From NCBI GenBank assembly GCA_025357055.1, contig JANXPZ010000130.1:1-59207 (forward strand): DNA of 59,207 nucleotides, read 5' to 3'. A model generated the notes under the pieces. That model made no database searches and was not told the origin of the DNA. It was given only the letters and a program-made list of their open reading frames with translations. The position numbers were made by a program, and so were the translations under genes. Position 1 is the first letter of the stretch. The number at the start of each line of letters is the position of its first letter. Shown here piece by piece: positions 12,710-59,207 of this stretch. The stretch is from Candidatus Eiseniibacteriota bacterium (GTDB taxonomy: Bacteria > Eisenbacteria > RBG-16-71-46).

Positions 12710-12713
<4 letters not shown>

Positions 12714-14242: not shown

Positions 14243-14251
14243 GGAGCGTGG

Positions 14252-15328: not shown

Positions 15329-15465
15329 GCGTCAGCCGGCGAACGTCCCCCAGGGCTCCGGCGGGACGAGGCCGGCGGGGATGAGGACGCGCGACGCCGG
15401 ACCGCCGAACGCTCCCTGTGTGCATCCGCCCCGTGGTCCGCAGGGACGGTGGTCGCCGCCGTGGC

Positions 15466-16347: not shown

Positions 16348-16382
16348 GCGAGCCTCAACGCGCCGGAGCCACCACCGGCGCG

Positions 16383-31927: not shown

Positions 31928-32105
31928 ACGAGGGCCGCGGGATGAAGGACTCGGCCGCGTCGGGCCCTGCTCGCGGCCACGGGGCTCGAGGCGGTGGCGT
32001 GCGCCTTCGTCAAGATCGGCATGCTCTGGATGCGCCGGTCGTGAGGTCGCCTGCCATGCACGGGACGCCATCGGGGCCGGGGCTGAGAGCCGACAGGAGC
32101 CACCC

Positions 32106-32783: not shown

Positions 32784-32785
32784 GC

Positions 32786-33427
32786 ATGGAACGGCTCGGC
32801 GACGCGCTCCTGCTGCTGGTGCTGCTCACGGACCTCGCGCTGCTGGTCACCGACCGGCTGAGCGGCTCCATCCGGCTGGTCGCGCTCCAGGGCGTGCTGC
32901 TCGGGCTGGCGCCGCTCACCCTGGCGCACGGCGCCTCGCTCCACCTGGCCGCCATCGTGGCCGGGACGATCGCCATCAAGGCGGTGGTGCTGCCGCGCAT
33001 CCTGCTGTGGGCGATCCGTGAGGCGGAGGTGCGGCACGAGCGCCAGCCCTCGATCGGCCATCTGCCCTCGCTGCTGCTGGGGCTGGCGGTCACGGGCATC
33101 GCCTTCCTCGTCGCGGCCCGCCTGCCGGCGCTGCCGGGGAACTCGCTGCCGCTGCTGATCCCGGTCGCGCTGTCCACGCTGATGATCGGCTTCCTGCTGC
33201 TCACCAGCCGGCGCAAGGCGCTCTCGCAGGTGCTGGGCTACCTGGTGCTCGAGAACGGGATCTACCTCTTCGGGCTCACGCTGGCCGACCGCCTGCCGCT
33301 GCTGGTCGAGATGGGCGTGCTGCTGGACGTGTTCGTGGGCGCGTTGATCATGGGTCTCGTGGTCTTCCAGATCCAGCGCGAGCTCGAGACGCTCGACTCG
33401 CGCGAACTGTCGCAGCTCACCGACTGA
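32786..33427 (+). CDS. hyfE: Hydrogenase-4 component E-like membrane subunit
   Basis: ALQG, IKAVVLP, SQVLGYLVLENGIY, EMGVLLDV. Confidence 0.87.
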   Translation: MERLGDALLLLVLLTDLALLVTDRLSGSIRLVALQGVLLGLAPLTLAHGASLHLAAIVAGTIAIKAVVLPRILLWAIREAEVRHERQPSIGHLPSLLLGLAVTGIAFLVAARLPALPGNSLPLLIPVALSTLMIGFLLLTSRRKALSQVLGYLVLENGIYLFGLTLADRLPLLVEMGVLLDVFVGALIMGLVVFQIQRELETLDSRELSQLTD

Positions 33428-36380: not shown

Positions 36381-36455
36381 ACGCGGAGGAACTGCGGACG
36401 TCCTGCGTCGCGGGCCGGGAGCGCGAAGGGCGCGGTGTGCGCAGCGGGGGTCGTC

Positions 36456-37229
36456 ATGTTGAAGTACCTGCTCGGCCGGCTGCGCCGGGGCAGCCACACG
36501 CTGCCCTACCCGCGCACGGTCCCCACGCTGCCCGAACGCTACCGCGGCCGGCCGGTGCTCGATCGCACGCTCTGTCCGGACGGTTGCAGGGCCTGTGCGG
36601 CCGCGGCGCCCACCGGCTTCCTGCGGCTGGACGCCGGCGGCGTGCCCGCGCTGGACCTGGGCGCCTGCCGCTTCAGCCCGGAGGAGTCCGCTGCGTGCCC
36701 GGCCAGCGCGATCCGCTTCAGCGGTGAGCACCGCATGGCCACCTCCGCGCGCGAAGCGCTCGTCACACCGACGGGCGAGGTCGAGCTGGCGCACGCGCTG
36801 GAGGCTTCGGCGCGCCGGCTCTTCGGGCGCTCGCTCCGGTTGCGCTCGGTGGTGGCGGGCAGTTGCGGAGGCTGCGAGCCGGACATCGCGGTGCTGGGCA
36901 CCGTGGTCTTCGACCTCGCGCGCTTCGGCATCCAGTTCGTGGCCTCGCCGCGACACGCGGACGGCATCGTCGTCACGGGCGTGGTCAACCCGAACATGCG
37001 CCTGGCGCTCGAGAAGACCTGGCAGGCCGTGCCCGAGCCACGGCTCGTCATCGCGGTGGGCGCCTGCGCCCTCTCGGGCGGGCCGTTCGCGGCGAGCCTG
37101 CAGGGCGGGACGGGCGTGCCGGCGGAACTGCCGGTGGACCTGTGCGTGCCGGGCTGCCCGCCCCATCCGCTCACGCTGCTGGACGGGCTGCTGCGCCTGC
37201 TGGGCAGGCTCGAACGTGGAGAGCGCTGA
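36456..37229 (+). CDS. ehrS: Degenerate ferredoxin domain fused to a NuoB/HyfI-like Fe-S small subunit
   Basis: YRGRP, partial Cys motifs (CPDGCRAC..; GACRF..ACP), then GSCGGCE, SPRHAD, GACA and PGCPPHP. Confidence 0.85.
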   Translation: MLKYLLGRLRRGSHTLPYPRTVPTLPERYRGRPVLDRTLCPDGCRACAAAAPTGFLRLDAGGVPALDLGACRFSPEESAACPASAIRFSGEHRMATSAREALVTPTGEVELAHALEASARRLFGRSLRLRSVVAGSCGGCEPDIAVLGTVVFDLARFGIQFVASPRHADGIVVTGVVNPNMRLALEKTWQAVPEPRLVIAVGACALSGGPFAASLQGGTGVPAELPVDLCVPGCPPHPLTLLDGLLRLLGRLERGER

Positions 37230-44874: not shown

Positions 44875-46487
44875 GACGGCTTCACCTCCACGAGCTTGCG
44901 CCTGCGGCGCGCGGTCTCCAGGCACTCGCGCACGGCGATCACCACCGACAGGCCCGGGTGCGCGAACTCGCCGCGCAGCAGCTCGGCGATCTGCGGCACC
45001 CGGCGCGGCAGGACCTCGACCACGTGCAGGTGTCCGGGATCCACGCCCAGCCCCAGCACGATGTCCTTCAGGCGCGCCGACGGCGCGATGGACTCCTGCC
45101 CGCCGGTCATGGCCGTGGTCTCGTTGTCGAGGATGATCAATGTCATGTCGGCGTCCTCGTGCACCGCGTCGAGCAGTGGCGTGAGTCCCGAATGCAGGAA
45201 CGTGCTGTCCCCGATGACCGCCACGGCCGGGCGGAAGCCGGCCTCGGAGGCGCCCTTGGCCATGCCCACCGAGGCGCCCATGCAGACGCACGATTCGATG
45301 GCGTCGTAGGGCGGCAGGGCGCCCAGCGTGTAGCAGCCGATGTCGGCGGTCACGGTGCTCTGGGCCTGGCCCGCGAGCGCCTGCTTGAGCGCGTGGTACA
45401 TGTGGCCGTGGGAGCAGCCCTGGCAGAGCTGCGGCGGCCGCGTCGGGAGCGCCAGGTCGCCCGGGTTCGTGAGGGGCCGGGCCGGCAGTCCCAGCGCCGG
45501 ACGCACGTTGTCGGGCGTCAGTTCGCCCTCGAGCGGCACCTCGCCCGTCAGCTTCCCGAGGATGGGCAGCGGCGTGTCGAGCAGCCCGCGCAGCAGGCGC
45601 TCGACCAGCGGATAGCCCTCCTCGAACACCAGCAGCCGCTTCACCTGCCCCGCCAGCCGGCGGATCAGGGCGAGCGGGAGCGGGTAGGCGCCGATGTGCA
45701 GGTGCGATGGACGGCTCGCGAGTTCGCGCGCGTTCTCCTCGAAGTAGTTGCGCGCCAGTCCGGTGGTGATCACGCCCAGCTCGCGGTCGTCCGGGTTGAG
45801 CGTGAGCCGGTTCCAGCGGCAGTCCTCGCTCCAGGCGACCATCTCCTGCTGGCGGCCGAGCAGGTCGTGCCACTGGCGCCGGGCGTGGCTCGGCAGCAGG
45901 ATCCACGACTGCGGCCGCAGGGCCTTGCGCACCGGGTTCTCGGGCCGCGGCTCGGCGGCCACCTCGATGGCGGTGCGGCTGTGCGCGAGCCGGGTCACCA
46001 GCCGCAGCATCACGGGAACGGCGAAACGCTCGGAGAGGTCGAAGGCTGCGGCGGTCATGTCGTAGGCCTCCTGCTGCGTGGCGGGCTCCAGGCACAGGAC
46101 CCGCGCGAAATCGGCGTAGAAGCGGCTGTCCTGCTCGTTCTGCGAGGAGTGCATGCCCGGGTCGTCGGCGACCGCGACCACCAGCCCGCCGTGCGTGCCC
46201 ACCAGCGCCGCGTTGACGAACGGGTCGGCGGCGACGTTGAGGCCGACGTGCTTCATCGAGACCAGTGCCCGCCGGCCGACGAAGCAGGCGCCGAGCGCCT
46301 CCTCCATCGCGGTCTTCTCGTTGGCGCACCAGGCCGCGAACGGGCGGCCGTGCCTGCGGCGGAACTCGAGCAGGTACTCGAGGATCTCGGTCGCTGGCGT
46401 GCCCGGATAGGCGTACGCCGAGGACACCCCGGCGTGCACCGCGCCGAGCGCGACACATTCGTCTCCCAACAGGATCCTGCGGGGCAT
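44871..46487 (-). CDS. iorA: Indolepyruvate:ferredoxin oxidoreductase alpha subunit (no C-terminal ferredoxin domain)
   Basis: AYPGTPATEI, NEKTA, MKHVGLNVAADP, DDPGMHSSQNEQD, RPP.LC.GC.H, DIGCYTL, TPP motif GDSTF..DN.TTAMTGGQ. Confidence 0.93.
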   Translation of the reverse strand: MPRRILLGDECVALGAVHAGVSSAYAYPGTPATEILEYLLEFRRRHGRPFAAWCANEKTAMEEALGACFVGRRALVSMKHVGLNVAADPFVNAALVGTHGGLVVAVADDPGMHSSQNEQDSRFYADFARVLCLEPATQQEAYDMTAAAFDLSERFAVPVMLRLVTRLAHSRTAIEVAAEPRPENPVRKALRPQSWILLPSHARRQWHDLLGRQQEMVAWSEDCRWNRLTLNPDDRELGVITTGLARNYFEENARELASRPSHLHIGAYPLPLALIRRLAGQVKRLLVFEEGYPLVERLLRGLLDTPLPILGKLTGEVPLEGELTPDNVRPALGLPARPLTNPGDLALPTRPPQLCQGCSHGHMYHALKQALAGQAQSTVTADIGCYTLGALPPYDAIESCVCMGASVGMAKGASEAGFRPAVAVIGDSTFLHSGLTPLLDAVHEDADMTLIILDNETTAMTGGQESIAPSARLKDIVLGLGVDPGHLHVVEVLPRRVPQIAELLRGEFAHPGLSVVIAVRECLETARRRRKLVEVKPS

Positions 46488-46600
46488 GGAACCTCCGAGC
46501 GGGTGTCGCAGGGTCCGCCGTGCTCGCCGGCCCGCGCTGCCGGCCGCGGAATGCCGCAGCGCAAGCGGACGAGACCACTCACGGACCCCCGGTGGATCGA

Positions 46601-46730
46601 CCGCGGTATCCTAACGGACCGGGGACGCCAGCAGAAGGAGCCGGGCGGGCGGGTTCGCGGCCGGGGCGCACCCCGACTGGCTCGAGGGGCCGTCTTATGG
46701 GGCCCGCGGGCCCGTGGTATCCTCACGGAC
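46601..46730 (+). repeat. 19-bp imperfect direct repeat CCG(C/T)GGTATCCT(A/C)ACGGAC in the divergent intergenic region
   Basis: Copies at 46601-46619 and 46712-46730; partial CTCACGGAC at 46578. Confidence 0.7.
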
Positions 46731-46819
46731 GGCTCGAGTTCATCCGTTCACCATGCGTCCGCATCCCCGTCGGGGACCCGGGCATGCATCCGTCGATCCG
46801 TCTTGCGGGGACCGGTCCC

Positions 46820-48811
46820 ATGGCATCACGCGCGTTCTCTTCGTTCCGCGTCTCGCGGAGTGCCGCCCCGGCGCTGGCCGTGCTCGCGGCCCTGACCTGG
46901 CTGGTGGCCGGCGTGTCGCCGGCGTTCGCGCTGAAGGTGGCGACCTGGAACCTCACCGGCTACCCGCCCGCGGACATCTCCACGCGGCAGCCCCACCTGC
47001 GCATCGTGCTCGCCGCGCTCGATCCCGACGTCATCGCCGTGCAGGAACTCGCGACCGCGGCCGGGCGCGATTCATTCCTCACCAACGTGCTCAACGTCGT
47101 GCAGCCCGGGCAGTGGTCGGCGACGAACTACTTCGCCACCTGCCAGAGTGCCATCTTCTACAAACCGGCGAAGGCCACGCTCACCTTCGGGGGCTCCGCG
47201 ATCCCCACCGGCGGGCCGCGGGACGTGCTCGCCGTGCGGCTCAGGCACGCGGGCTACGCGTCGAAGCTGGCGGAGATCCGGCTCTACTCGGTCCACTTCA
47301 AGGCGGGCGATGTCGCGGCCGACGTCACGGCCCGCGCTCTCGAGTGCGCGAGTCTGCGGAACAACATGAATTCCGCGACCACCGCCGTGACGTCCAACTA
47401 CCTGGTCTGCGGGGACACGAACGTCTACGGGAGCACCGAGGGCGGCTACCAGCGGCTCACCGAGAGCCAGGCCGACAACGACGGCCGCTGCTTCGACCCG
47501 CTGACGATGCCCGGGACGTGGAACCAGTACGCCTACGCCGCGTACCACACGCAGTCGACCTGCAGCAGCGGCTGCCCGGCCGGCTGGGCCGGCGGCGGCC
47601 TGGATGACCGTTTCGACCTGTTCCTCACCTCACCCACGCTGCAGGACGGCGAGGGGCTGGACCTGGTCCCGGGTGGCTACGTCGCGTACGGCAACGACGC
47701 CCAGCACTACAATGCGAGCATCAACGGGGGCGTCAACTACGCCGTGGGCATGGACGTCGCCACCGCGCTGTTCTTCTCGTCCGACCACCTGCCGGTGATG
47801 GTGACGCTCCAGGCGCCGGCGAAGGTGCTGGCCGCCTCGAGGCTCGATTTCGGCACGGTCATCGTGGGCGCGACCGCGGAGCAGCCGCTCACCGTGACGA
47901 ACGGGGCGGCCGTGCCGGCGGACGAACTCAGCTACTCGCTCGTGGCGCCCGCGGGCTTTGCGGCTCCCGCCGGCCCGTTCGCCGCGAACGCGGGCGCGGC
48001 CGGCAACGTCCACGCCGCCTCCATGGTCACCACCGATCCCGGCGTGAAGAACGGCGTCCTGACCGTGTCCTGCGACGATCCGGACTCGACGGCGAAGCCG
48101 ACGCAGCTCTCGGGCACGGTGCTGGCGCACGCCGCGGCGTCGCTCGACTCCGCGAACGTCACGACCCAGGCCACCCTCGATTTCGGCACGCACGCCCCGG
48201 GCGACTTCGCCGATCTTCCGGTGAGGGTCCACAACGCCGGGTGGGGCGCCCTGCAGGCGAAGCTCGAGCTGACCGGCGGGGTCATCAGCGGCGGGAACGG
48301 CCGCTTCTCGATGGTGGGCGGCTTCGAGCCGGCGGAGATCGCGGGTGTCGCACGCGCCTACGCCCTGCGCTTCGACGGCGCCGGCGCCACCGCCGACTCG
48401 CTCTACGAGGCCACGCTGGTCCTCTCCGGAACCGATGAGCCGCTTCCCGGCGCCTCGCCCGCGGCCGACCTCGTCGTGACGCTGCGCGCGCGCACGCTGC
48501 CGGGCGACACGGGCGTGGTCACCCCGCTCCCCGAGCGGATCGCGTTCCATCCGCCGAGCCCGAACCCGTTCCGCGGGACGACCACGCTGCGGTTCGACCT
48601 GCAGCGCGAGGCCGAAGTCTCGCTCGAGCTGTTCGACCTCTCGGGCCGGCGCGTGGCCACCATCCTGAAGGGGACTCAGCCGGCGGGCAGGCACGAGCTG
48701 CCGTGGAGTCCGGTGGCGCTGGGCCGCGGCCCGCTCCAAGCGGGGCTCTACTTCGTGAACTTCCGCACGGGCGGCTTCAGCCAGACCCGGCGGGTCGTGC
48801 TGGTGCCGTGA
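46820..48811 (+). CDS. Secreted endonuclease/exonuclease/phosphatase (DNase I-like) family protein with Ig-like domains and a T9SS/FlgD-like CTD
   Basis: Signal peptide (..SPAFA), TWNL, DVIAVQE, VHFKA, GDTN, RFD and SDHLPV; CTD PNPF..LFDLSGRRVAT..GLYFV..RRVVLVP. Start may be 46784. Confidence 0.87.
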   Translation: MASRAFSSFRVSRSAAPALAVLAALTWLVAGVSPAFALKVATWNLTGYPPADISTRQPHLRIVLAALDPDVIAVQELATAAGRDSFLTNVLNVVQPGQWSATNYFATCQSAIFYKPAKATLTFGGSAIPTGGPRDVLAVRLRHAGYASKLAEIRLYSVHFKAGDVAADVTARALECASLRNNMNSATTAVTSNYLVCGDTNVYGSTEGGYQRLTESQADNDGRCFDPLTMPGTWNQYAYAAYHTQSTCSSGCPAGWAGGGLDDRFDLFLTSPTLQDGEGLDLVPGGYVAYGNDAQHYNASINGGVNYAVGMDVATALFFSSDHLPVMVTLQAPAKVLAASRLDFGTVIVGATAEQPLTVTNGAAVPADELSYSLVAPAGFAAPAGPFAANAGAAGNVHAASMVTTDPGVKNGVLTVSCDDPDSTAKPTQLSGTVLAHAAASLDSANVTTQATLDFGTHAPGDFADLPVRVHNAGWGALQAKLELTGGVISGGNGRFSMVGGFEPAEIAGVARAYALRFDGAGATADSLYEATLVLSGTDEPLPGASPAADLVVTLRARTLPGDTGVVTPLPERIAFHPPSPNPFRGTTTLRFDLQREAEVSLELFDLSGRRVATILKGTQPAGRHELPWSPVALGRGPLQAGLYFVNFRTGGFSQTRRVVLVP

Positions 48812-48882
48812 CGGGGGCGGAGCTCCCGGTCGCATTCGGCGAGAGCATGGCGGAATCGCGGGGAGACAACGAGTGAACCCCT

Positions 48883-48912
48883 TTGACAACGTCCTGTCGG
48901 GGAGGGTAGGGT
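48883..48912 (+). promoter_or_regulatory. Sigma-70-like promoter of the TBDR operon (TTGACA-18-TAGGGT)
   Basis: Perfect -35; the in-frame TTG at 48922 lies 9 nt after the -10. Confidence 0.5.
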
Positions 48913-48921
48913 ACAGGCACT

Positions 48922-51771
48922 TTGAATTCACTCCCTATGCATAGAGCCGCGTTCGTTCCCGTCCTCGCCTCCCTTTTCCTGACGTTCTGCGCTTCTTCCG
49001 CGCTCGCGCAGGCGAAGGGCAGTATTTCCGGCCGGGTCGTGGACCAGAGGACGAACCACGCCATCCCCTTCGCCAACGTGGCCGTGGTCGGCGCGCAGCG
49101 CGGCGGGCTCACGGACTCCGAAGGCCAGTACCTGCTCACGGGCATCCCCGTCGGGACCTACGAGCTGAGCGTGCGCTTCCTCGGCTACCGCCCCGGAAAC
49201 CGGACCGGCGTGATCGTCACGGCCGGCAAGTCCGTGGTCGTCAATTTCGAGCTCTCCGAGGTCGTGGTGCAGGAGGTGAAGACGGTCGAAGTGACCGCCG
49301 AGCGCCGCCTGGTCGAGGTCAAGCAGGGCACCACGGTCCGCAGCACCAACGCCAGCGAGATCCGCAACCTGCCGGTCCAGACCATCGGGGACGTCCTGCA
49401 GCGGCAGGCCGGCATCAGCACCGAGGGGGACCAGATCCACATCCGTGGCGGGCGCGCCGACGAGACGGTCTTCGTCATCAACGGCGTCACCAACCGCGAT
49501 CTCGTGACCGGGCAGTCCACGGCCGGCCAGATCAACGCCCGCTCGGTCGCCGAGGTGAACGTCGCCACCGGCGCCTACGACGTGCGCTACGGGAACGCGC
49601 TCTCCGGCGTGGTCGAGGTCAAGCTGAAGGAAGGTGGAGACCAGATGACGGGGGGCATCACGACGACGGCGGGAAGCTATGGCGGCCGCGCGTTCCAGCT
49701 CGTGGTCGGCGGCCCCGACCCGGTCTGGAGCCCGCTGCTGCACCTCGCCGGTCTGCCGGGCAAGGTGACGTCGATCCTCGACTTCTCGTGCAGCCTGTAC
49801 GACACCCGCTACCGCTACCTGAGCCCGGTGAAGAACGATTTCTACTCGAACACCATCGAGCCGGTCTTCGTCCCTTCCGAGACCTACCGGCTCACGTCGA
49901 GCTACGAGGACAGCTTCCTCGGCCGGCGCTTCAAGTACGGGGACATGTTCGGGCCCTCCGCGGACAACCGCTGGGCGCTGCGCTACGGCCTGACCTGGAA
50001 GCCGAGCGTCCGCGACAAGTGGGAGATGGATTTCTCGAAGCGCATCGCGATCGACCAGGGCTTCAGCCGCACGTTCATCACGGCCACCGGCGACCAGGGC
50101 GATCCGACCTACCCGTGGCGCTGGGCGCACCGGATCCAGCACGCGCCGACGATCTTCGAGGACAACGTCCAGAGCTCGGTGTCCTGGCGGCGGTCCCTGG
50201 ACGCCACCGGCTTCACGGAGCTGCACTTCTCGCGGTACTTCTTCGCCCAGCGCCAGGACGTGATGGGCAAGATGTGGTGGGACTTCCAGGGCGACACCAG
50301 TCTCTACCAGGCGCCGGACGACCTCGTCTTCCCCCGTGGCGACCCGCGCCGCTCGGACTATTTCTACGACACCGGCGACAACAACACCTGGCAGGACCGC
50401 CGCACGACCACCTACCAGCTCCAGGGCAACTACCTGCAGCGCTTCAAGCGGCACGAGGTGGAACTGGGCTTCGACCACCAGTCCCAGTCGGTCCAGTACG
50501 TGACCATCGAGGACCCCTGGACCGAGGACCAGAACCGTCTGGGCGCGGCCCACGACGTGTGGTCCGTGCATCCGTGGGTGGGGAACCTCTACGCGCGTGA
50601 CCGGCTCGACTACGAGGGGTTCACCGGCAACGTCGGGATCCGGGCCGATTACTGGTTCCTGGGCCGCGAGGCCGAGGCCGCCATCGCGGACCCCACCAAC
50701 CCGAACCTGACCTCCGAGACCCGGGAGCTGTTCTACGACGAGACGCGCTCGTTCTTCGGCCGGCGCTACAAGCTGAAGCTGTCGCCGCGCGTGATCGTGG
50801 CCCACCCGATCACCCAGAACAGCAGCTTCTTCTTCAACTACGGGCAGTTCACCCAGAACCCGTCGTACCGCTACGTCTACTCGCGGCTCACCTCGATCTC
50901 GAGCGAGTCGTTCCCGCTGCTGGGGAACCCCAACCTCAATCCGCAGGTCTCGGTCAACTACGAGCTCGGCGCCAAGCACATGTTCCTGCCCACCGCCGCC
51001 GCCAACCTGACCTTCTTCGTCAAGGACACCTACGACTACCCGGCCTCGACCCTGTTCACCGGAGGCGAGGCTGCCGCCGGAGAGGTCCCGAAGCCCGTCT
51101 TCGTGTATCTGAACGGGCACTTCGCCCGGTCGCGGGGGTTCGAGCTCGAGATCGAGAAGCGGCGCAGCCACAACTGGTCGGGCAAGATCATCTACACCTA
51201 CCAGCAGACCAAGGGGAAGAGCAGCGATCCCAACGAGCAGAAGATCGTCCAGCAGACCGGCGGCAACGCCGCCGACACCCGGCTCTCCGAGACCTTCGTG
51301 TCCTGGAACCGGCCGCACAAGCTCGCGGTCATCTTCGACGCGCGCTTCGACAAGACGGCCCCCTGGAGCTGGGTGCGGAACAGCGGGCTGAACCTCTACA
51401 TCCAGGGCTATTCCGGACGCTCCTACACGCCCCAGGACACGCTCACCACGCAGGCGGGCGAGCCCAACTCGAAGAACGGGCCGTTCCAGATCACCACGGA
51501 CCTGCGCATGAACCGGTCGCTGCACATGTTCTCGAAGCGTCTCGACCTCAGCGTGGTCGGCATCAACATCTTCAGCAACCGGCTCATCAGCCGCATCGAT
51601 CCCATGACCGGCCGGGGCCGGGTGTGGGGTGTCGGGTCGTACAATCCGCAGAATCCGGGCTTCCCGCAGGACCCCGTCTCGGTCGCCTATCTCAAGCAGT
51701 CCACCACCGACGATCCATCCAACTACGGTGACGGCGTCCAGTGGAGATTCTCGCTCGACTATGACTTCTAA
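48922..51771 (+). CDS. TonB-dependent outer-membrane receptor with an N-terminal carboxypeptidase-regulatory-like domain
   Basis: Signal peptide, GSISGRVVD..IPFANV, plug (IHIRGGR..E, YGNALSGVV), LGNPNLNPQ.SVNYELG, terminal FSLDYDF. Start is 48922 (TTG) or 48937 (ATG). Confidence 0.9.
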   Translation: MNSLPMHRAAFVPVLASLFLTFCASSALAQAKGSISGRVVDQRTNHAIPFANVAVVGAQRGGLTDSEGQYLLTGIPVGTYELSVRFLGYRPGNRTGVIVTAGKSVVVNFELSEVVVQEVKTVEVTAERRLVEVKQGTTVRSTNASEIRNLPVQTIGDVLQRQAGISTEGDQIHIRGGRADETVFVINGVTNRDLVTGQSTAGQINARSVAEVNVATGAYDVRYGNALSGVVEVKLKEGGDQMTGGITTTAGSYGGRAFQLVVGGPDPVWSPLLHLAGLPGKVTSILDFSCSLYDTRYRYLSPVKNDFYSNTIEPVFVPSETYRLTSSYEDSFLGRRFKYGDMFGPSADNRWALRYGLTWKPSVRDKWEMDFSKRIAIDQGFSRTFITATGDQGDPTYPWRWAHRIQHAPTIFEDNVQSSVSWRRSLDATGFTELHFSRYFFAQRQDVMGKMWWDFQGDTSLYQAPDDLVFPRGDPRRSDYFYDTGDNNTWQDRRTTTYQLQGNYLQRFKRHEVELGFDHQSQSVQYVTIEDPWTEDQNRLGAAHDVWSVHPWVGNLYARDRLDYEGFTGNVGIRADYWFLGREAEAAIADPTNPNLTSETRELFYDETRSFFGRRYKLKLSPRVIVAHPITQNSSFFFNYGQFTQNPSYRYVYSRLTSISSESFPLLGNPNLNPQVSVNYELGAKHMFLPTAAANLTFFVKDTYDYPASTLFTGGEAAAGEVPKPVFVYLNGHFARSRGFELEIEKRRSHNWSGKIIYTYQQTKGKSSDPNEQKIVQQTGGNAADTRLSETFVSWNRPHKLAVIFDARFDKTAPWSWVRNSGLNLYIQGYSGRSYTPQDTLTTQAGEPNSKNGPFQITTDLRMNRSLHMFSKRLDLSVVGINIFSNRLISRIDPMTGRGRVWGVGSYNPQNPGFPQDPVSVAYLKQSTTDDPSNYGDGVQWRFSLDYDF

Positions 51772-52765
51772 CCTGAAGAGAGCCGCTTCGGCGCTGGGGA
51801 TCGCGGGCCTCCTGCTCGGCGTGGGGGTCGCGCATGCCCAGTTCGATCTGGGCAGCCAGCGCGCGGGCACGTCCTCGGGAGCGTTCCTGAAGATCGGCGT
51901 GGGGGCACGGGCCGTGGGCATGGGGGAGGCCTTCGTCGCGGTGGCGAACGACCCCTCCACGATCGTCTGGAACCCCGCCGGGCTTGCGTCCATCCTTCGC
52001 CAGGAAGTGCAATTCTCGCACGCGGCGTGGCCGGGCGACATCACGTACGACTACCTCGTCTACGTGATGCCGTCGCGCCGCCTGGGCGGCTCGCTCGCGA
52101 TCCAGCTGGGCATGCTCGGGACGCAGATGGACCAGACCGACGAGTACCATCCCTTCGGCACGGGGACCACCTTCTCCTACAGCGATTTCGTGGCGGGTGT
52201 GGCCTACGGGCGGCGCTGGACGGACAAGCTCCTGATCGGCGCCGGGATCAAGTACGTGCGCGAGGACCTCGGCTCCCAGGTCGGCGGGCCGGTCAGTTCG
52301 ACCACGCTGGTGGACCTTGGCTCGATCTACTACCTGGGCTACGGCAGCGTGCGGATCGCGACCTCGCTCAGCAACTTCGGGCCCGAGATGGCCCCCGGCG
52401 GCACGTACCTTTCCCCGTACTCGGGGGAGACGCGCAGCTACGACGGCTTCGACCCGCCCATCCAGTTCCGCTACGGGCTCGCGTTCGAGGCGTTCGAGAA
52501 TCCGCGACAGCGGCTCACGGTCTCGACCGAGATCCTGCAGCCCGCCGACAACTCGCAGCGCATCAAGGCCGGGCTCGAGTGGGTCTGGCAGCGGCGTTTC
52601 GCGCTGCGCAGCGGGTACAACTTCAACGCCGACGTCATGCGCTTCTCCGCCGGGGCCGGGGTCGTGCTCCCGATGAGCCTGACGCAGGGCTCGTTCGACT
52701 ACACCTTCACCGACGGTGGCCCGCTGGGCAGCGTGAACCGCATGTCGCTCGGGTTCCGGTTCTGA
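51761..52765 (+). CDS. porV: PorV/PorQ (UPF0164)-family outer-membrane beta-barrel
   Basis: FLKIGVGARAVGMGEAFVAVANDPSTIVWNPAGLA signature, FALRSGY, terminal SLGFRF. Confidence 0.85.
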   Translation: MTSNLKRAASALGIAGLLLGVGVAHAQFDLGSQRAGTSSGAFLKIGVGARAVGMGEAFVAVANDPSTIVWNPAGLASILRQEVQFSHAAWPGDITYDYLVYVMPSRRLGGSLAIQLGMLGTQMDQTDEYHPFGTGTTFSYSDFVAGVAYGRRWTDKLLIGAGIKYVREDLGSQVGGPVSSTTLVDLGSIYYLGYGSVRIATSLSNFGPEMAPGGTYLSPYSGETRSYDGFDPPIQFRYGLAFEAFENPRQRLTVSTEILQPADNSQRIKAGLEWVWQRRFALRSGYNFNADVMRFSAGAGVVLPMSLTQGSFDYTFTDGGPLGSVNRMSLGFRF

Positions 52766-53943
52766 TGGCCGCCCGCGCACGCCATCGGCTGGCACTCGCC
52801 CTGCTCGCGGCGGCCGCCCTCGGGGGGCTGGCCGTCGGGTGCGGCACGACGTTCAAGCTTCCCACCGAGATCCGCGGGAGCAGCAGCACCGCCCAACAGG
52901 GCACGTATCAGAAGATCGACACCTGGCGCGGGATGACCAACATCCAGGACATCCTGCTCACCTCGGGCGGCGAGCTGTTCATGGTCTTCCAGGATCCCCT
53001 GACCCGGACCGGCCAGGTGCGCCAGTTCCCGCAGTCGAACAAGGTGCCGCTCTCCACGAACTTCCCGGGACTGCTCAATCCCACCGCCATCTGTTCCGGG
53101 GCGAACCGGGTCTTCGTGCTGGACCAGGGCGACACGAGCGCCGCGCGCATCACTCTCCCGGACTCGTGTCAGTACGTCGCGGAGCTCAACGCGGACGTGG
53201 ATTCGACCAGGCTGCCGCTCTATGGTTTCAAGCGGCCGATCGCGAACATCGCGGCCTACTGGCACGTGCGCGAGTACCTGCTGGACGGGACCCCGGTGGA
53301 CGCCTTCACCGACACGAGCTTCGCGTGGGTCAACGGAGTGGCGGCCGACGCCCTGGGCCGGGTCTATGTGTCGGGTGTGATCCTCTACGCCAGCGTGGAC
53401 CCCTTCCAGAGTGCGGTGACATACATCGACTTTCGCTCGCGGATCCGGCGCTACGTGCGTGGGACCGGAGACCGCTTCGTGGTCGGCGGCCAGTGGCGCC
53501 GGGATCCGACGTACGTGATCCTCGATGGCACCGGGTTCGGCTCGACCAAGGACCCGCGCGGGATGCAGTGGGCCGACGCGCAGGGCCCGGCACTCACCTT
53601 CGCCGACCGGGGCAACGATCAGGTGCAGAAGTTCGGTGACCCCGCCGGAGGTGCCTCGTCGTACAAGCTGGACTTCGGCGGATCGGGGCCGGACAGCATG
53701 CTGCTCTCGCAGCCGGTCGACGTGGCCGTGGACTCCGCGGGCTACCTCTACATGGTGGATGCCGGGAACTCGCGGGTGCTGCGTTACGATCCCGACGGCA
53801 GATTCGTCCAGCGGGTGGACTGGAACGTGGGAGAGGTCCTGGTCCCGCTCACGGGCCCGGTGTCCGTCGCGGCGGACAACCGGCAGGTGTACATCGCCAA
53901 TCGCGGCGCTGCCGAGGTGCTGCGTTACCGGAGGCGGGATTGA
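52765..53943 (+). CDS. NHL-repeat beta-propeller lipoprotein
   Basis: Lipobox LAVGC; repeats NPTAI..VFVLDQG, PRGM..FADRGNDQVQKF and PVDVAVDSAGYLYMVDAGNSRVLRY. Confidence 0.8.
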   Translation: MAARARHRLALALLAAAALGGLAVGCGTTFKLPTEIRGSSSTAQQGTYQKIDTWRGMTNIQDILLTSGGELFMVFQDPLTRTGQVRQFPQSNKVPLSTNFPGLLNPTAICSGANRVFVLDQGDTSAARITLPDSCQYVAELNADVDSTRLPLYGFKRPIANIAAYWHVREYLLDGTPVDAFTDTSFAWVNGVAADALGRVYVSGVILYASVDPFQSAVTYIDFRSRIRRYVRGTGDRFVVGGQWRRDPTYVILDGTGFGSTKDPRGMQWADAQGPALTFADRGNDQVQKFGDPAGGASSYKLDFGGSGPDSMLLSQPVDVAVDSAGYLYMVDAGNSRVLRYDPDGRFVQRVDWNVGEVLVPLTGPVSVAADNRQVYIANRGAAEVLRYRRRD

Positions 53944-55976
53944 GAAGAGCGATGAGTCTGGCGGTGGCCCTGGTGCTGTGGACGAGTGTGGCCGCGGCGG
54001 TGGAGCGTGAGCCCGCGCCCGCGCTGGGCCCCTCTTCCGTCTTCGAGCGCATCGTCCCCGACTCGGCCCGGTTCGACCAGGAGATCCAGGCGGGGAACGC
54101 GATCGCGATGACCATGACCAACTACGGCTTCTACGGCAACAACTTCTTCCGGCGCGAGGCGTCCTTCGAGTACCCGACCAACCGGGGCTACGAGCACCTG
54201 GTCCGCGGGGGGCTGTGGATCGGGGCGCAGGCCACGGACGAACACGGCGAGTTCACCGGCGTGGCGTGCGGCGCCGTGGACGCTAACCAGGGGCCGAACA
54301 GCACCCTGGCGAGCGAGTTTACGCCGTCCGGGCTGGACATCCTCAAGCGGTCCACGCTGTCCACGAGCCCGTTCTACGATCCCCTTCGGGCGATCAGCGA
54401 ACTGGACTTCGTCTCGGGTTTCAACGATTTCAGCCCCGTTGTCGTGGCCGGCGGCGAAGCCCATCGCCCCATGAACATCGAAGTCCAGCATGAGACCTAC
54501 CAGTGGAACTTCGCTGAATTCGCGAACATCCTCTTCGTGCACCTGAAGGTGACCAACCGCGGTCCGCTGCTCAAGAACATGTATGTCGGCTTCTACGCCG
54601 AGCTGGCGAGCGGCTGCAAGAAGTGCTACGTGAACTGGCCTCCCGGCGCGAGTGATGCCGGCGGCATGGGGGGCTACTACGACAAGAAGTGGATCGCCTT
54701 CGACGACTCGCTGGGCCTGATGCGCGAGCATTACTGCGCGGGCTTCGCGGCGCCTCCGGCGGACCCGGTGAGCGGCTGCGCCGCCCACATCGAGCCGTAC
54801 TGGGTGGGGATCAAGCACCTGGGCACGCGCGGCCTGGCAGAGGACACGACGACCCGCAAGCTCTCGTTCTCGGCGTGGAGCTGGCTGCCCGGCAGCCCCT
54901 TCCGCGACGAGGATGTCGAGCGTTACGCGCTCATGAGCACGGGGCTCATCCAGCCGATCGCCGGGGACTCCCTGATGCCGAGGACCGGCGATCCAGTCAC
55001 GATCTTCAGTGTCGGGCCGTTCCCGCTGATCTATCGGGACAGCACCGTCACCGTGGATTTCGCCTTCGTGGGGGGCTCGGGGGGCGCGGGAGGCGCCGAT
55101 CCACGCGGCATCCAACTCAACTCGAAGTTCGCGCAGTTCGCCTACGACCACAACTACGTCCTGCCGGTCCCGCCCCCTTCGCCGCGCTTCGAGGTGGTCG
55201 CGCGGGAGCAGGCGCTCGATTTCTACTGGGACAACGAGTCGCAGAGCGCCTACGACGTGACGAGCCAGCCTCCCAACGACTTCCAAGGATACCGGGTGTA
55301 CATCGGTGAGGATCCGGACACCATGGCGTTGGTCGCCCAGTTCGACGTCGCCGGCGACACCGCCAGCTTCAACACCGGCTTCGACGCGATCACCATCGCC
55401 CCGACACTCGTGGACACCCTGACGGCGAACTACAAGTTCACGGTCCGCGGGCTGAAGGACGGGTTCAAGTACTACTGCGCCGTGACCGCCTTCGACCTTG
55501 GAAATAGCCAGATCACCTCGCTCGAGAGTGGCCGGTCCCAGAACCAGCGCATCGCCATACCGGGAACCCAGCCGGGTGAGCGGCCGGATTCGAAGCCGAC
55601 GGTCTTCCCGAATCCCTACCGGGTCGAGGCCCGCTGGGACCAGGGGAGCAACGTGCGCGACCACTATCTGTGGTTCGCGAACCTCCCCGAGCGCTGCACG
55701 ATCCGGATCTACACGCTGGCGGGCGACCTCCTGCTCGAGAAGGAATTCGACGGCGCCACCTACCATGGCGAGGGGGCCCGTGGCATCTACGATCCCTCCG
55801 CGTCGCTCGGCAAGCCGACGCTCTCGGGCGCCTCGTTCGGATGGAACCTGATTACGCGCCAGGGGCAGGCCATCGCGACCGGGCTCTACCTGTACTCGGT
55901 GGAAGACCACGCATCCGGCAACAAGCGCCACGTCGGCAAGTTCCTGGTGATCAAGTCCGACCGGGAGGGGCAGTGA
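53940..55976 (+). CDS. Secreted protein with a T9SS-like C-terminal domain, function unknown
   Basis: Signal peptide, MTNYG, SFEYP..L..GGLWIG, FN3-like FQGYRVY..YYCAVTAFD, CTD VFPNPY..IRIYTLAGDL..WNL..GLYLYSV..GKFLVIK. Start may be ATG 53952. Confidence 0.8.
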   Translation: MRRAMSLAVALVLWTSVAAAVEREPAPALGPSSVFERIVPDSARFDQEIQAGNAIAMTMTNYGFYGNNFFRREASFEYPTNRGYEHLVRGGLWIGAQATDEHGEFTGVACGAVDANQGPNSTLASEFTPSGLDILKRSTLSTSPFYDPLRAISELDFVSGFNDFSPVVVAGGEAHRPMNIEVQHETYQWNFAEFANILFVHLKVTNRGPLLKNMYVGFYAELASGCKKCYVNWPPGASDAGGMGGYYDKKWIAFDDSLGLMREHYCAGFAAPPADPVSGCAAHIEPYWVGIKHLGTRGLAEDTTTRKLSFSAWSWLPGSPFRDEDVERYALMSTGLIQPIAGDSLMPRTGDPVTIFSVGPFPLIYRDSTVTVDFAFVGGSGGAGGADPRGIQLNSKFAQFAYDHNYVLPVPPPSPRFEVVAREQALDFYWDNESQSAYDVTSQPPNDFQGYRVYIGEDPDTMALVAQFDVAGDTASFNTGFDAITIAPTLVDTLTANYKFTVRGLKDGFKYYCAVTAFDLGNSQITSLESGRSQNQRIAIPGTQPGERPDSKPTVFPNPYRVEARWDQGSNVRDHYLWFANLPERCTIRIYTLAGDLLLEKEFDGATYHGEGARGIYDPSASLGKPTLSGASFGWNLITRQGQAIATGLYLYSVEDHASGNKRHVGKFLVIKSDREGQ

Positions 55977-57487
55977 TGCGCGCGCGCGGGATCCTGGCTG
56001 CGTCGATCGTGGTCGTCCTGGCCCTCGGTGGGCTCGCCGGCTGCTCGAAGAAGCTGCGTCCGATCCAGAACCTGCCGCCCGAGACCTATGTCTTCATCCA
56101 GGGGTCGGTGGACGTCGTGAACCATCGGGTGCACCTGTACTGGTTCGGCACCGACCCCGATGGCAGCGTCGCCAGCTACAAGTATCGCTGGGTCTACCCA
56201 CCCCCGGCTTCACAGGATCCTGCCTGGGTCACGATCCTCGATGAGCATGGCTCACTGCGCACCGATTCGATGTTCACGGTCTTCACCGGGGACTCGGGGG
56301 AGGTGACCCCGCGTTTCGAGATCTACGCCATCGACAACGAGGGCCTGGCCGATCCCACCCCGGCGGTGCAGCGTTTCCTGCTCAGCAACCTCGCCCCGCA
56401 GGTGATCTTCACCGACCCGCTGGGGCTCGCGGATTCGACCTACGCCTCCGCCACCGTGAGCTGGACGACCATCGACCCGGACGGCGGCGGGCCGGGCCTG
56501 CACTACCGGATCTGGCTGGCCGGCAACGAAGCCAGCTACGACTCGACGAGCGAGCAGACCTTCACCGTTCCGAGTTCCCGTTTTCTCCGTAACGGCGTGT
56601 ATGAGTCCCGCCGCTGCTCTCTCTACGTGCAGGCGGTGGACGACGGGGGTCGCAGGGGAGAGCCGGTGCTGATGAACTGGTACGTGCGGGCTCCGGCGGC
56701 GGTGCTCGAGAACAACCAGGGCCGGCTGCTCATCGTTGATGACCTGCCGCGCACGGGGGCGAACAAGCCGCTGTTCGACGCCTTCTACAAGAGCGTCGCC
56801 GATCTGCTTCCGAACGGCAATCTGGACTACGACGTGCTGCGGCTCTATGCCAATCCCAACATCTTCCGCAGCGGACGCGACGTCGCCCAAACCTTCCGGC
56901 AGTTCAAGGCGGTGCTCTGGTACCGCGGTGGTGAGACCACCGTCTCGCCGTTGCTCCAGGCATACCAGGACAGCATCGGCGCCTACCTGGATTCGGGTGG
57001 GAATCTCTACGTGGACGGTCTCTACCTGACCGAGGGCCTGAACGCTCCAGGCGCCTTCCGCGAGGATTTCGTGAGCCGTTACCTGGGGAGCGCCGGGTTT
57101 GTGAATTGCTTCACCAGACTCGGCTCCTCGGGACCCGTGGACTCGACTGCGGGCTGGAGCAATCGCGTCAACAGCCGTTTCCGCTCCTCCCGTTACGGGG
57201 AGGCATTCGGCGCCACCGCGTCTCCTTCCGCGCTAGTAAGCACGAGCGGCGGGATACGGGTCTTCGCCGTCGCCGACACCAACTCTGTGGCGCTCTGGGC
57301 CATGGACGGCCAGTTGATTCCTGCCAACACGGGCTTCGAAGCGCCTGTCGGGCTAACCGTTCCGCAGGGCACGGGTGGCCGGATCACCGTGCTGAGCATG
57401 CCGGTCCGTTACGCCGCCCCCGCGGTGGCCTCCCGCCTCCTGCGGCGGATGCTCCACGACTTCGGGATCGGCATCCCCCTGCCCTGA
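55976..57487 (+). CDS. Lipoprotein with Ig-like domains and a C-terminal alpha/beta domain, function unknown
   Basis: Lipobox LAGC, PPET, W.GTDPDG.V..Y.Y, AIDNEG..DPTPA, LLIVDD..KAVLWY; TGATG coupling. Confidence 0.8.
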   Translation: MRARGILAASIVVVLALGGLAGCSKKLRPIQNLPPETYVFIQGSVDVVNHRVHLYWFGTDPDGSVASYKYRWVYPPPASQDPAWVTILDEHGSLRTDSMFTVFTGDSGEVTPRFEIYAIDNEGLADPTPAVQRFLLSNLAPQVIFTDPLGLADSTYASATVSWTTIDPDGGGPGLHYRIWLAGNEASYDSTSEQTFTVPSSRFLRNGVYESRRCSLYVQAVDDGGRRGEPVLMNWYVRAPAAVLENNQGRLLIVDDLPRTGANKPLFDAFYKSVADLLPNGNLDYDVLRLYANPNIFRSGRDVAQTFRQFKAVLWYRGGETTVSPLLQAYQDSIGAYLDSGGNLYVDGLYLTEGLNAPGAFREDFVSRYLGSAGFVNCFTRLGSSGPVDSTAGWSNRVNSRFRSSRYGEAFGATASPSALVSTSGGIRVFAVADTNSVALWAMDGQLIPANTGFEAPVGLTVPQGTGGRITVLSMPVRYAAPAVASRLLRRMLHDFGIGIPLP

Positions 57488-57566
57488 TGGGGCTTGGCAG
57501 TCCGCCGCCCGCCCCGCAGTGGCGGGCACGGTCCCTGCCTACGCCGCCCTCTGATGCCGTTTTCAG

Positions 57567-57595
57567 TTGAGTCCTGGCGCCCCGGTGGTTATAGT
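57567..57595 (+). promoter_or_regulatory. Sigma-70-like promoter (TTGAGT-17-TATAGT) with an approximately 180-nt leader
   Basis: Near-consensus boxes with a 17-nt spacer in GC-rich DNA. Confidence 0.6.
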
Positions 57596-57779
57596 TATGC
57601 CATTCCTTGTAGTCGGCTCCGGGGACCGTCACTCGGCGTGACAGCCTGGGACGAGCCTGGAGCGACCGGGGAGAGGCCCGCACCCTCGGGATTACACCTG
57701 CTGGAGGAGGGACAACGACCGCGAAGCAGTTCATGCCTCCCACACCTCGACCACCGCATCAGGAAAGAGAGGGGTCAAA

Positions 57780-59207
57780 ATGAGTCGCGTTGTTAGAACG
57801 CTGTTCGCCGTCACGCTCCTGGCGTTCGTTGCCTCCACTGCCTCCGCTGTAGACACGTATCCGCCGGGGCCGTCCTATCGCTCCTGTCCGGACAGCGTGA
57901 CCATGTTCCAGGTCCAGCAGGCCGACACCACCCTGAATCCGTGCTACCCCGCCATCGCTGACACGGTTCGCGGCATCAAGGGGATCGTCACCGGCTTCCG
58001 GCTCCGTTCCACGGGCCGCATCTACATGCAGAACTCGAACGGGTCCGACTACAACGCGCTCCAGATCTACACCGTCGGGCACACGGAGAGCCAGGGCATC
58101 GCCATCGGCGACAGCATCTCGGTCGCCGGCCTCTCGCAGGCGTACCAGGGCGAGAGCCAGGTCCAGGGCACGCTCGGCACTTCGCTGACCGTCCGCAAGA
58201 TCAGCAGCGGCAATGCGCTCCCGCCCTTCCACGTCGGCACCACGTCCGAATTCAAGTGGGCCCCCGCTGCGGGCGCTGGAAGCGCATTCGCCCATTGCAA
58301 TCCGTTGGAAGGGGCACTGGTCAGGATCAATGGCCCGCTCAAGGTCGCCCGCGTTCAGGCCGGCGCCGGCCTGTACAGCCCCACCAACTGGCTGCTCGTC
58401 AATTCCGGCGGCTCCGCCCCTGGCGACAGCATCGTCGTCGATGGCTACCAGCTCCCGATCCTCAACATCAACGCGCCGCCACTCGGTGCGCAGGTCGACT
58501 GGGTCCAGGGCATCCTGCGCCGGGCCACCAACAGCGGCGTCGACTGCTGGCTGGTCTCCCTGCGTGACGTGAACGACCAGCAGGTCGCCTCTCCTCCCGG
58601 CCTGTCGGAGGCCTACCCCATCGCTGAGAACCAGATCCGGCTCCACTTCGACAAGAACGTGGACGTTGCGACCGCGCAGAACGCCGCGAACTACACGCTG
58701 GGCTCCGCCATCGGCGGCTCCTCCGTGGATCTCGCCACGGTCGTCGGCGGTGCCGGCAACGTCGTGGATCTGACCATCACGGAGACCCTGCCGCGGCTCT
58801 CGCTCGAATCGATCCAGGCCGAACAGATCGGCGCGGCGACCTGCCCGACCTGCCTCTCGTCGCAGCAGTCGTCGAGCTTCATCCTCGGCGTGCTCTCGGT
58901 CGCCGAGGTCCAGGCACCGCTGGCGGATTCGCTGGGTGGCGTGCCTTGCCTCGACAAGTCACGGTTCGCGCAGGGCGGCTCCTCCTGGGGCTCGCGGCTG
59001 ACGGTGCGCGGTGTCTTCGTCAAGCAGTACGGCACCCTCTACTTCATGGAGGATGCGGCGGGTGGTCAGCGCAGTGGCGTCGCCGCCTACAACGTGCCCT
59101 TCGGGATGACGGCCGGTCACCAGTACCTGCTGGCCTGCCGCGTCCAGGAGTTCTACGGCATGACCGAGTTGTCCAACCCCGCGGCCCTCATCGACGAGGG
59201 TGTGGTC
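57780..59207 (+). CDS. 3'-truncated secreted protein with repeated OB-fold-like modules (absent from the ORF track because it runs off the window)
   Basis: GAGAGG RBS; signal peptide MSRVVRTLFAVTLLAFVASTASA; modules GIVTG..IYMQ..GDSISVAG..YQGESQV and RGV..YFMED..SGV..VQEFYGMTEL resemble YhcR/ExeM-type OB folds. Confidence 0.8.
   Translation, partial: MSRVVRTLFAVTLLAFVASTASAVDTYPPGPSYRSCPDSVTMFQVQQADTTLNPCYPAIADTVRGIKGIVTGFRLRSTGRIYMQNSNGSDYNALQIYTVGHTESQGIAIGDSISVAGLSQAYQGESQVQGTLGTSLTVRKISSGNALPPFHVGTTSEFKWAPAAGAGSAFAHCNPLEGALVRINGPLKVARVQAGAGLYSPTNWLLVNSGGSAPGDSIVVDGYQLPILNINAPPLGAQVDWVQGILRRATNSGVDCWLVSLRDVNDQQVASPPGLSEAYPIAENQIRLHFDKNVDVATAQNAANYTLGSAIGGSSVDLATVVGGAGNVVDLTITETLPRLSLESIQAEQIGAATCPTCLSSQQSSSFILGVLSVAEVQAPLADSLGGVPCLDKSRFAQGGSSWGSRLTVRGVFVKQYGTLYFMEDAAGGQRSGVAAYNVPFGMTAGHQYLLACRVQEFYGMTELSNPAALIDEGVV

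Follow-up and report, generated by a model that had tools for sequence, protein, structure and literature searches.

The operon described here occupies positions 48922-57487 of a 59,207-nucleotide stretch of DNA from a Candidatus Eiseniibacteriota bacterium (GenBank assembly GCA_025357055.1, contig JANXPZ010000130.1; the whole stretch is hereafter the window), and looks like an undescribed outer-membrane machine built from uncharacterised protein families. Its five co-directional genes (G1-G5) encode a TonB-dependent receptor, a PorV/PorQ-family barrel, a lipoprotein with NHL repeats, a secreted protein whose C-terminal domain (CTD) resembles those of type IX secretion system (T9SS) cargo, and a second lipoprotein. 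Receptor, PorQ-like barrel and PorZ-tailed protein together make up a genuine module that recurs, with homologs on a plasmid of Rhodothermus marinus DSM 4252. Tentatively, and at a little under even chances, the five products are read as a single outer-membrane assembly around a TonB-dependent transporter, with G4 serving as an arm held by the barrel.

Operon organization

The features of the operon are as follows.

48883..48912, + strand: promoter-like element TTGACA-N18-TAGGGT directly upstream of G1, seen by eye
48922 (TTG) or 48937 (ATG)..51771, + strand: G1, TonB-dependent receptor, 949 aa
51761..52765, + strand: G2, PorV/PorQ-family outer-membrane barrel, 334 aa; residues 39-334 aligned
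52765..53943, + strand: G3, lipoprotein with NHL beta-propeller repeats
53940 (TTG) or 53952 (ATG)..55976, + strand: G4, secreted protein, 678 aa, divergent PorZ-like CTD
55976..57487, + strand: G5, lipoprotein with two FN3 domains and a C-terminal alpha/beta domain

Frames of the open reading frames (ORFs) were chosen by third-position G+C, which is high in all five. Each gene overlaps or abuts the next, confirming the five-gene operon proposed in a first-pass annotation of the window: the ATG of G2 lies 11 nt inside G1, the G2/G3 and G4/G5 junctions are both TGATG with a 1-nt overlap, and G3 and G4 overlap by 4 nt if the TTG start is used, with GGAGG 5 nt upstream of that TTG. Elements resembling the promoter-like pair (TTGAC-N17/18-TAGGGT) were seen by eye before the receptor gene in nine of 12 sources inspected, namely the window and related loci L001, L002, L008, L005, L013, L033, L019, and L047; the element at 48883..48912 was not among the sites listed by a consensus promoter scan.

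The window is about 72% G+C, with 0.656-0.696 over 48000-58000 and 0.70-0.75 elsewhere. The dip occurs in a locus that is syntenic across the phylum, and it reflects the composition of outer-membrane proteins more probably than recent transfer. The absence of susD and core T9SS genes from the window, also noted in the first-pass annotation, was upheld: neither a SusD nor a T9SS core family was found in the operon or in the 38 other predicted window proteins (Pfam, E <= 0.001), and five of those 38, additionally run against NCBIfam, likewise gave no such match; of the core genes sprA/sov, gldKLMN/porKLMN and porU, none lies in the window.

The receptor G1 and the barrel G2

G1 is a TonB-dependent receptor outside the SusC family. 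It starts with a signal peptide; family models identify CarboxypepD_reg as its N-terminal extension, then Plug (37.9 bits, cutoff 23.9) and a PF14905 (OMP_b-brl_3) barrel (33.8 bits, cutoff 27), and the SusC/RagA model TIGR04056 reaches 31.9 bits against a cutoff of 368.25, over the N-terminal 184 positions only. The N-terminal region is conserved among orthologues and carries a TonB-box-like VEVTAERR; a conserved VEVTAERRLVEV stretch, a candidate TonB box, separates that extension from the plug. Alignment of G1 from the window with 38 orthologues gives a mean column identity of 67% (39 sequences).

G2 belongs to the PorV/PorQ family (NF033709, 173.6 bits, cutoff 90), with similarity to the PorV structure 6h3i in the Protein Data Bank (PDB) at E 7.9e-5, or 6.9e-8 with a profile, and mean column identity of 67% when aligned with 42 orthologues (43 sequences in all). 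All of its equivalog scores fall below cutoff, the best being PorQ (NF033711, 69.9 against 220), followed by PorV2 (58.5 against 325) and PorV (NF033710, 56.4 against 250); as a scale for the PorV model, a Phocaeicola PorV-family ORF scores 206.6 bits. At 56.4 bits G2 thus looks unlike the canonical PorV shuttle. BamG, described as a FadL-like subunit of the beta-barrel assembly machinery (PMC12611786, PMC12578637), was set aside as an identity for G2 because of the 173.6-bit match to NF033709.

The secreted protein G4

G4 comprises a signal peptide, a beta-super-sandwich (residues ~40-400), an FN3 domain (~410-520) and a divergent PorZ-like CTD (~545-670). It has no Pfam family, and the N-terminal domain of 42 family members is without one even at E <= 5. 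Its AlphaFold2 model (predicted local distance difference test, pLDDT, 85.7; predicted template-modelling score, pTM, 0.83) ends in a seven-strand tail, in agreement with the 3+4 sandwich described for T9SS CTDs (PMC11285876). The top Foldseek match, at best local, is PorZ 5m11 (E 7e-7), followed by the N-terminal sandwiches of GH116 beta-glucosidases, GH94 phosphorylases, and related enzymes (probability 1.00, TM-score ~0.26, ~410-430 aligned columns). A beta-super-sandwich with FN3 is a fold typical of carbohydrate-handling proteins, and G4 has no counterpart of the GH116/GH94 catalytic barrel, so its modelled body suggests a binding module without catalytic activity, possibly for carbohydrate.

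The tail of G4 is a divergent, T9SS-like CTD and not a standard type A one. It aligns with the canonical CTDs of the same organism at an hhalign probability of 85% (E 6e-6) with two insertions, and is ~125 residues long against ~80 in the ordinary type A CTDs of that organism. The T9SS-like CTD claimed in the first-pass annotation therefore stands as a related fold; as a type A domain it does not, the type A model TIGR04183 giving no match. The closest named relative is PorZ, whose model (NF052228) scores 15.4 bits against a cutoff of 260 and only over its last ~87 positions; the PorZ C-terminus (NCBIfam) matches the tail in 30 of the 42 family members, from several phyla, with a best E of 7.9e-9, and the PorU model does so in one. 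No propeller appears in the G4 model, whereas PorZ has two. Profile searching of the PDB with G4 gave only PorZ 5m11, weakly (E 0.62), and PDB sequence searches were empty.

The tail is also the slow-evolving part of the protein. Median identity is 70% for the tail and 48% for the body among 54 orthologues, and 63.5% and 47.8% among 20 pairs of in-locus paralogs; the C-terminus GKFL[IV][IV]KSDRE is near-invariant and kept in both paralogs. Mean pairwise distances are 0.31 for the barrel, 0.32 for the G4 tail, and 0.35 for the receptor, then 0.45 for the G4 body, 0.51 for the NHL protein, and 0.57 for G5. Slow evolution with a fixed end is what would be expected of a retained docking domain and not of a cleaved signal.

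The G4 family is large and, like that of G5, labelled hypothetical throughout. Relatives at E <= 0.001 number 600 among 8000 scored candidates and 1930 in a library of 50%-clustering representatives; among the 120 matches listed, identity is 49-89%, and the two with an organism name are Candidatus Eisenbacteria. Named members of the short form occur in WOR-3, Hydrothermia, KSB1, Gemmatimonadales, Cloacimonetes, Ignavibacteria, Calditrichales, and Krumholzibacteriota, and named members of the family are also present in Rhodothermales. The family tracks lineages carrying T9SS-type CTDs. Atlas look-alikes of G4 and G5, sought through orthologues, are most often labelled Bacteroidota or Ignavibacteriota. 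One Rhodothermus-type relative (P0499) carries a precomputed Pfam label, PF27730, which the Pfam scans made here did not return; this recent Pfam family may cover part of the G4 family.

The lipoproteins G3 and G5

G3 has the lipobox LAVGC and an NHL repeat (36.1 bits, Pfam). G5 also has a lipobox and matched no Pfam or NCBIfam family; its AlphaFold2 model (pLDDT 90.3, pTM 0.81) shows a pair of FN3 domains followed by an alpha/beta domain at the C-terminus, its Foldseek matches are dominated by tandem FN3 arrays, and PDB sequence searching gave nothing beyond FN3. The nearest named Atlas look-alikes of G5 orthologues, offered as a lead only, are DUF4960 proteins (score 0.90), which belong to polysaccharide utilisation loci. 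Elsewhere in the window, a partial type A CTD protein at 2-2122 contains a stretch resembling, by eye, the alpha/beta domain of G5.

According to a figure legend in PMC12578637, which states a rule for Bacteroidota, surface lipoproteins carry at least two acidic residues just after the lipid-anchor Cys. Only one of 28 G3 cluster members with a recognised lipobox has at least two acidic residues at +2 to +7, and none of the 54 G5 cluster members carries the acidic signal.

Conservation of the operon across related loci

Genomes were scanned with a narrow G4 alignment; the best 80 of 323 coding matches (the 243 weaker ones were not included) fall in 66 loci, nearly all from one phylum because of the narrower alignment. 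Forty-one of the 66 are titled Candidatus Eisenbacteria and four carry other names. By gene calling and clustering, 45 loci have the full order receptor, barrel, NHL lipoprotein, G4, G5; the remaining 21 are interrupted by contig ends or fragmented calls but in no case show a conflicting order. Median gaps between successive genes are 5.5, -1, -4, and -1 nt, followed by 355 nt to the next gene, and no unexplained gene lies inside the operon. The five-gene arrangement is far beyond chance, and its conservation speaks for the first-pass annotation, which named an unconserved gene order as a refutation.

The neighbourhood consists of syntenic housekeeping genes: rpiB, the adenosine deaminase gene (add), and those for a thioesterase, an E2 acyltransferase, lipB, nadA, and lipA. 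It follows from this synteny that the cassette is single-copy, vertically inherited, and part of the core genome. The four contigs with other names (L020, L051, L035, and L063; titles Limnocylindria, Methylomirabilota, and Polyangiaceae) carry an Eisenbacteria-type cassette, and L051, L035, and L063 share the Eisenbacteria housekeeping synteny as well, L020 being only 3.4 kb long; all four are probably mis-binned.

A homologous cassette on a Rhodothermus marinus plasmid

When plasmids were searched with G4 by tblastn, one record was returned, pRMAR01 of R. marinus DSM 4252, and conservation of the cassette outside Eisenbacteria rests on that one Rhodothermus record. The genes RMAR_RS14125 to RMAR_RS14100 lie on one strand with tight junctions, in this order.

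Gene 1: FG-GAP propeller protein with type A CTD
Gene 2 (RMAR_RS14120): TonB-dependent receptor with CarboxypepD_reg, Plug, and PF14905
Gene 3 (RMAR_RS14115): G4 homologue, 1132 aa, annotated hypothetical
Gene 4 (RMAR_RS14110): PorV/PorQ-family barrel (NF033709, 215.9 bits; best equivalog PorQ, 95.8)
Gene 5: Amidase_2 protein with CTD-like end
Gene 6: class A beta-lactamase-like hydrolase

The plasmid receptor and G1 share 24% identity across 915 aligned columns, nearly the full length of the receptor (E 2e-47), and the plasmid barrel is 31% identical to G2 (E 2e-39). The 1132-aa protein matches the G4 profile with an hhalign probability of 100% (E 1e-42), and its tail is 40% identical to that of G4, including FANLPxRCTIRIYTLAG and GKFxVIK. 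Receptor, barrel, and G4-family protein are thus common to both lineages, tightly packed on one strand, and T9SS type A cargo proteins flank the cassette in both. The cassettes differ in several respects: on the plasmid the G4 homologue stands between receptor and barrel, while in the window the receptor is followed by barrel, NHL lipoprotein, and G4; the propeller is an FG-GAP protein with type A CTD in the former and the NHL lipoprotein in the latter; and the plasmid cassette is without G5 and has the longer G4 protein (1132 against 678 aa).

The chromosome of R. marinus DSM 4252 encodes PorQ (Rmar_0435), PorU and PorV (Rmar_0953/0954), and Sov (Rmar_2258) according to PMC7323717, so the plasmid barrel is an additional, dedicated paralog. 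The dedicated PorV paralog proposed in the first-pass annotation is supported as to an extra copy in R. marinus, and as to the distance of G2 from the canonical shuttle; the closest model is PorQ and not PorV. Relatives of the Rhodothermus form of G4 number 4122 at E <= 0.001; among the 119 listed besides the query, identity is 61-77%, and the named ones are all hypothetical. Several lie on contigs >1 Mb.

Proposed assembly and alternative explanations

In the favoured assembly, G4 would cross the inner membrane by Sec and reach the cell surface by way of its CTD-like tail, presumably through a T9SS-type route. It would remain uncleaved, with the tail docked on G2 as PorZ is on PorQ. Docking would place the beta-super-sandwich and FN3 arm beside G1, which would use TonB energy to move captured ligand over the outer membrane. 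G3 and G5 would more likely sit on the periplasmic face, for example near the N-terminal extension of G1, because the Bacteroidota-type surface-export signal is absent. Tethering of the G4 tail on G2 is plausible by analogy: in P. gingivalis the CTD of PorZ is described as retained and bound to PorQ, and a proposal in print holds that cognate PorV-like barrels protect retained CTDs (PMC10202324).

Several observations weigh against this assembly. Neither a TonB/ExbBD family nor a regulator near the operon was found in the scan of the 38 other window proteins, and Rfam had no match at 46000-59207, hence no riboswitch nearby; a riboswitch-controlled vitamin importer was considered and dropped because that scan was empty. 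With one copy, a place among syntenic housekeeping genes, and a receptor 58-86% identical across the sampled loci, the cassette is unlike variable nutrient loci. Flanking enzymes differ by lineage, nuclease-like in Eisenbacteria and of amidase/peptidoglycan type in Rhodothermus, and since G4 is conserved though these enzymes differ, it may not be the specificity element. The structural match of G4 to PorZ 5m11 has a TM-score of 0.13 and a root-mean-square deviation of 29 Å. TIGR04183 gave no match to G4 at E <= 0.1 (type A cutoff 23 bits) and matches only four of the 42 family members at E <= 0.01. Finally, the partial distance correlation between barrel and tail is 0.27, not above the 0.28 between barrel and NHL protein; the highest is 0.53, between the NHL protein and the G4 body. 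Such distance-matrix correlations are confounded by shared descent, and the partial values are weak. The first-pass annotation also depicted G4 as a substrate-capturing lid over the receptor, for which no support was found.

In the main rival explanation, the cassette would belong to the type IX sorting machinery instead of being a nutrient importer; it would be a relative of PorF, PorQ, and PorZ of P. gingivalis, and the receptor together with G4 and G2 would handle glycan or lipopolysaccharide for the processing or attachment of CTD cargo. This explanation is rather doubtful. A highly conserved, slowly evolving, single-copy cassette in a syntenic core-genome region fits a housekeeping role; the G4 family follows lineages with T9SS-type CTDs; the listed G4 relatives of R. 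marinus type share 61-77% identity, several of them on contigs >1 Mb; and the best scores lead from G2 to PorQ and from the G4 tail to PorZ. PorF (PG0534) is presented as a TonB-dependent-receptor-like barrel that the T9SS needs, with partners described as unknown (PMC5445135, PMC8754138, PMC12704123), and W50 porF, porQ, and porZ mutants are all described as beige with ~90% loss of gingipain activity (PMC12704123). The PorF N-terminus is CarboxypepD_reg-like, as in G1 (PMC7323717), but an extension of this type is common to many Bacteroidota receptors. The body of G4 is a beta-super-sandwich with FN3, not the propellers of PorZ, and the PorZ model covers only its last ~87 positions; moreover, the plasmid cassette of R. 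marinus DSM 4252 adds to chromosomal PorQ, PorU, PorV, and Sov and is not the sole attachment set. The operon might also descend from an ancient module, spread across the Fibrobacterota-Chlorobiota-Bacteroidota (FCB) group, that is kept whole here and scattered as PorF, PorQ, and PorZ in P. gingivalis. In such a module, a receptor driven by TonB would work with a PorQ-type barrel and with a surface protein that binds glycan and is held by an uncleaved PorZ-type tail; this is considered unlikely.

Co-transcription without a tethered complex is an improbable account, in which G2 would be a FadL-like channel for a hydrophobic compound or a generic barrel, and the G4 tail a cleaved signal. PorV has been called a FadL homologue (PMC12578637) and G2 has weak Pfam matches to Toluene_X (16.3 bits) and UPF0164, but the Toluene_X score compares with 173.6 bits to the PorV/PorQ family, the tail evolves more slowly than the mature protein and ends invariantly in both paralogs, and the trio recurs in a second phylum. 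Myxococcus Oar is reported to work outward and has the domain order CarboxypepD_reg, plug, barrel, which is also the order in G1. An Oar-like receptor exporting G4 or a neighbour, with G2 as acceptor, would fit the finding that partners of uptake (a binding protein, a regulator) are absent nearby among the window proteins; it is nonetheless highly improbable, given that the CTD-type tail of G4 points to a T9SS-type route and that the window is rich in type A CTD proteins, a sign that export runs through a separate system.

Relation to known systems

TonB-dependent transporters with surface partners and PorV-like barrels holding CTD proteins are known separately. The nearest parallel to G2 and G4 is the PorQ-PorZ pair of the P. 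gingivalis T9SS attachment complex, a PorV/PorQ-family barrel with a surface protein anchored by its kept CTD (PMC10202324, PMC10947112). G2 and the G4 tail score best there, yet far below equivalog cutoffs, and they differ in being co-encoded with a TonB-dependent receptor and two lipoproteins and in the non-propeller body of G4. PorP/SprF is described as a dedicated PorV-like barrel adjoining a type B CTD protein held on the surface (PMC9143113, PMC10202324); by comparison, G2 is in the PorV/PorQ family, the G4 tail aligns with type A and PorZ-like CTDs, and the PorP/SprF pairs as described include no receptor. The holding of an uncleaved CTD by a cognate PorV-like barrel is accordingly in print for both PorQ-PorZ and PorP/SprF (PMC10202324). 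PorF resembles G1 by its general receptor fold; it is a TonB-dependent-receptor-like barrel on which T9SS function depends, its N-terminus is CarboxypepD_reg-like, and porF is not reported to adjoin porQ or porZ.

In having a TonB-dependent receptor with an N-terminal extension beside accessory envelope proteins, the operon is like the SusCD utilisomes and BtuB-BtuG of Bacteroidota. It differs from SusCD in that there is no SusD, the receptor is not SusC, and the lipoproteins are without the acidic surface-export signal, and from both systems in having, as its candidate surface component, a CTD protein carried by a PorQ-like barrel instead of a lipoprotein. The suggestion in the first-pass annotation of an alternative to SusCD in non-Bacteroidota lineages was too strong: the module also occurs in Rhodothermota, the frequent Bacteroidota and Ignavibacteriota labels of the Atlas look-alikes do not agree with such a restriction, and SusC and SusD families are reported from all FCB phyla examined except Chlorobiota (PMC12611786). 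The literature search found no description of a TonB receptor and a CTD-holding PorV-like barrel in one conserved operon, and no paper on Eisenbacteria with T9SS or on PorV- or PorQ-like barrels beside TonB receptors.

A possible further cargo/dedicated-barrel pair was seen in Phocaeicola massiliensis (OY725976.1; L068), where an unannotated subtilisin-like protease at 6085-8897 with a weak CTD-like end (TIGR04183, E 0.008) directly precedes a PorV-family gene (206.6 bits to the PorV model, cutoff 250).

Flanking genes and the rest of the window

Three further proteins of the window are of interest as T9SS cargo.

2-2122: partial type A CTD protein (TIGR04183, 26.7 bits) with purple-acid-phosphatase N-terminal-like domain
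46880..48811, + strand: upstream neighbour; secreted protein with weak exonuclease III-like N-terminus, choice-of-anchor D domain, and T9SS type A CTD
57780..59207 (cut by the window end), + strand: downstream neighbour; T9SS type A cargo with ExeM/NucH N-terminal-like domain

Type A CTDs are above cutoff in all three (35.0 and 26.7 bits, the third through orthologues). The upstream neighbour scores 35.0 bits to TIGR04183 (cutoff 23), 45.4 to choice_anch_D and E 0.009 to xth; its cluster has five members (the window, L001, L002, L008, and L014) and is clade-restricted in the slot before the receptor. In half of the evaluable loci (21 of 42) a G4 paralog occupies that slot instead. In 22 loci, L033 (1815-4830) among them, the paralog follows add at a median distance of 21.5 nt, with rpiB just before, and may be co-transcribed with these nucleoside-salvage genes.

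The downstream neighbour is of the same family in all 36 evaluable loci (median gap 355 nt), and is probably its own transcription unit, with a promoter-like site at 57567-57595 in the consensus scan. Full-length orthologues score 34.6, 23.3, and 23.7 bits to TIGR04183 (cutoff 23) and match the first ~130 positions of ExeM_NucH (E 4e-10 to 3e-6); they have ExeM/NucH N-terminal-like (OB-type) domains, and no nuclease domain was detected. In L002 the gene is tandemly duplicated (13814-15859 and 15932-18007). PDB sequence searches gave nothing for either flanking protein.

Nucleic-acid scavenging by the operon is only a lead. It comes from the ExeM/NucH-like and exonuclease III-like neighbours and from rpiB, add, and a uridine kinase gene upstream; against it stand the region-wide synteny with unrelated housekeeping genes and the presence of peptidoglycan-type enzymes instead in Rhodothermus. 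Elsewhere in the window, genes at 11670-17441 for a Bmp/PnrA-type binding protein, an ATP-binding cassette (ABC) ATPase, and a permease, with a second permease at 2226-3131, suggest an inner-membrane nucleoside importer.

Other window proteins include a hydrogenase, Kdp, an Mrp/Nuo-like complex, and pyruvate:ferredoxin oxidoreductase. An MprF-like lysyl-phosphatidylglycerol synthase is split over two adjacent, overlapping genes (8918-11643), one with the transmembrane region (10636-11643) and the other with the C-terminal transferase and a lysyl-tRNA-synthetase-type transmembrane segment (8918-10639). Within the Mrp/Nuo-like membrane-complex cluster (29019-37229), a gene at 32106-32783 combines HTH_17 and PTS EIIA-2 domains.

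Significance

If the ancient-module explanation were true, TonB-dependent transport would be mechanistically coupled to type IX surface sorting, and the partner and role of PorF would become testable in the cultivable R. marinus. A function for the module would annotate thousands of genes. The module could reveal a third way to give a TonB receptor a surface binding arm or, alternatively, show that TonB transport is connected with type IX sorting.

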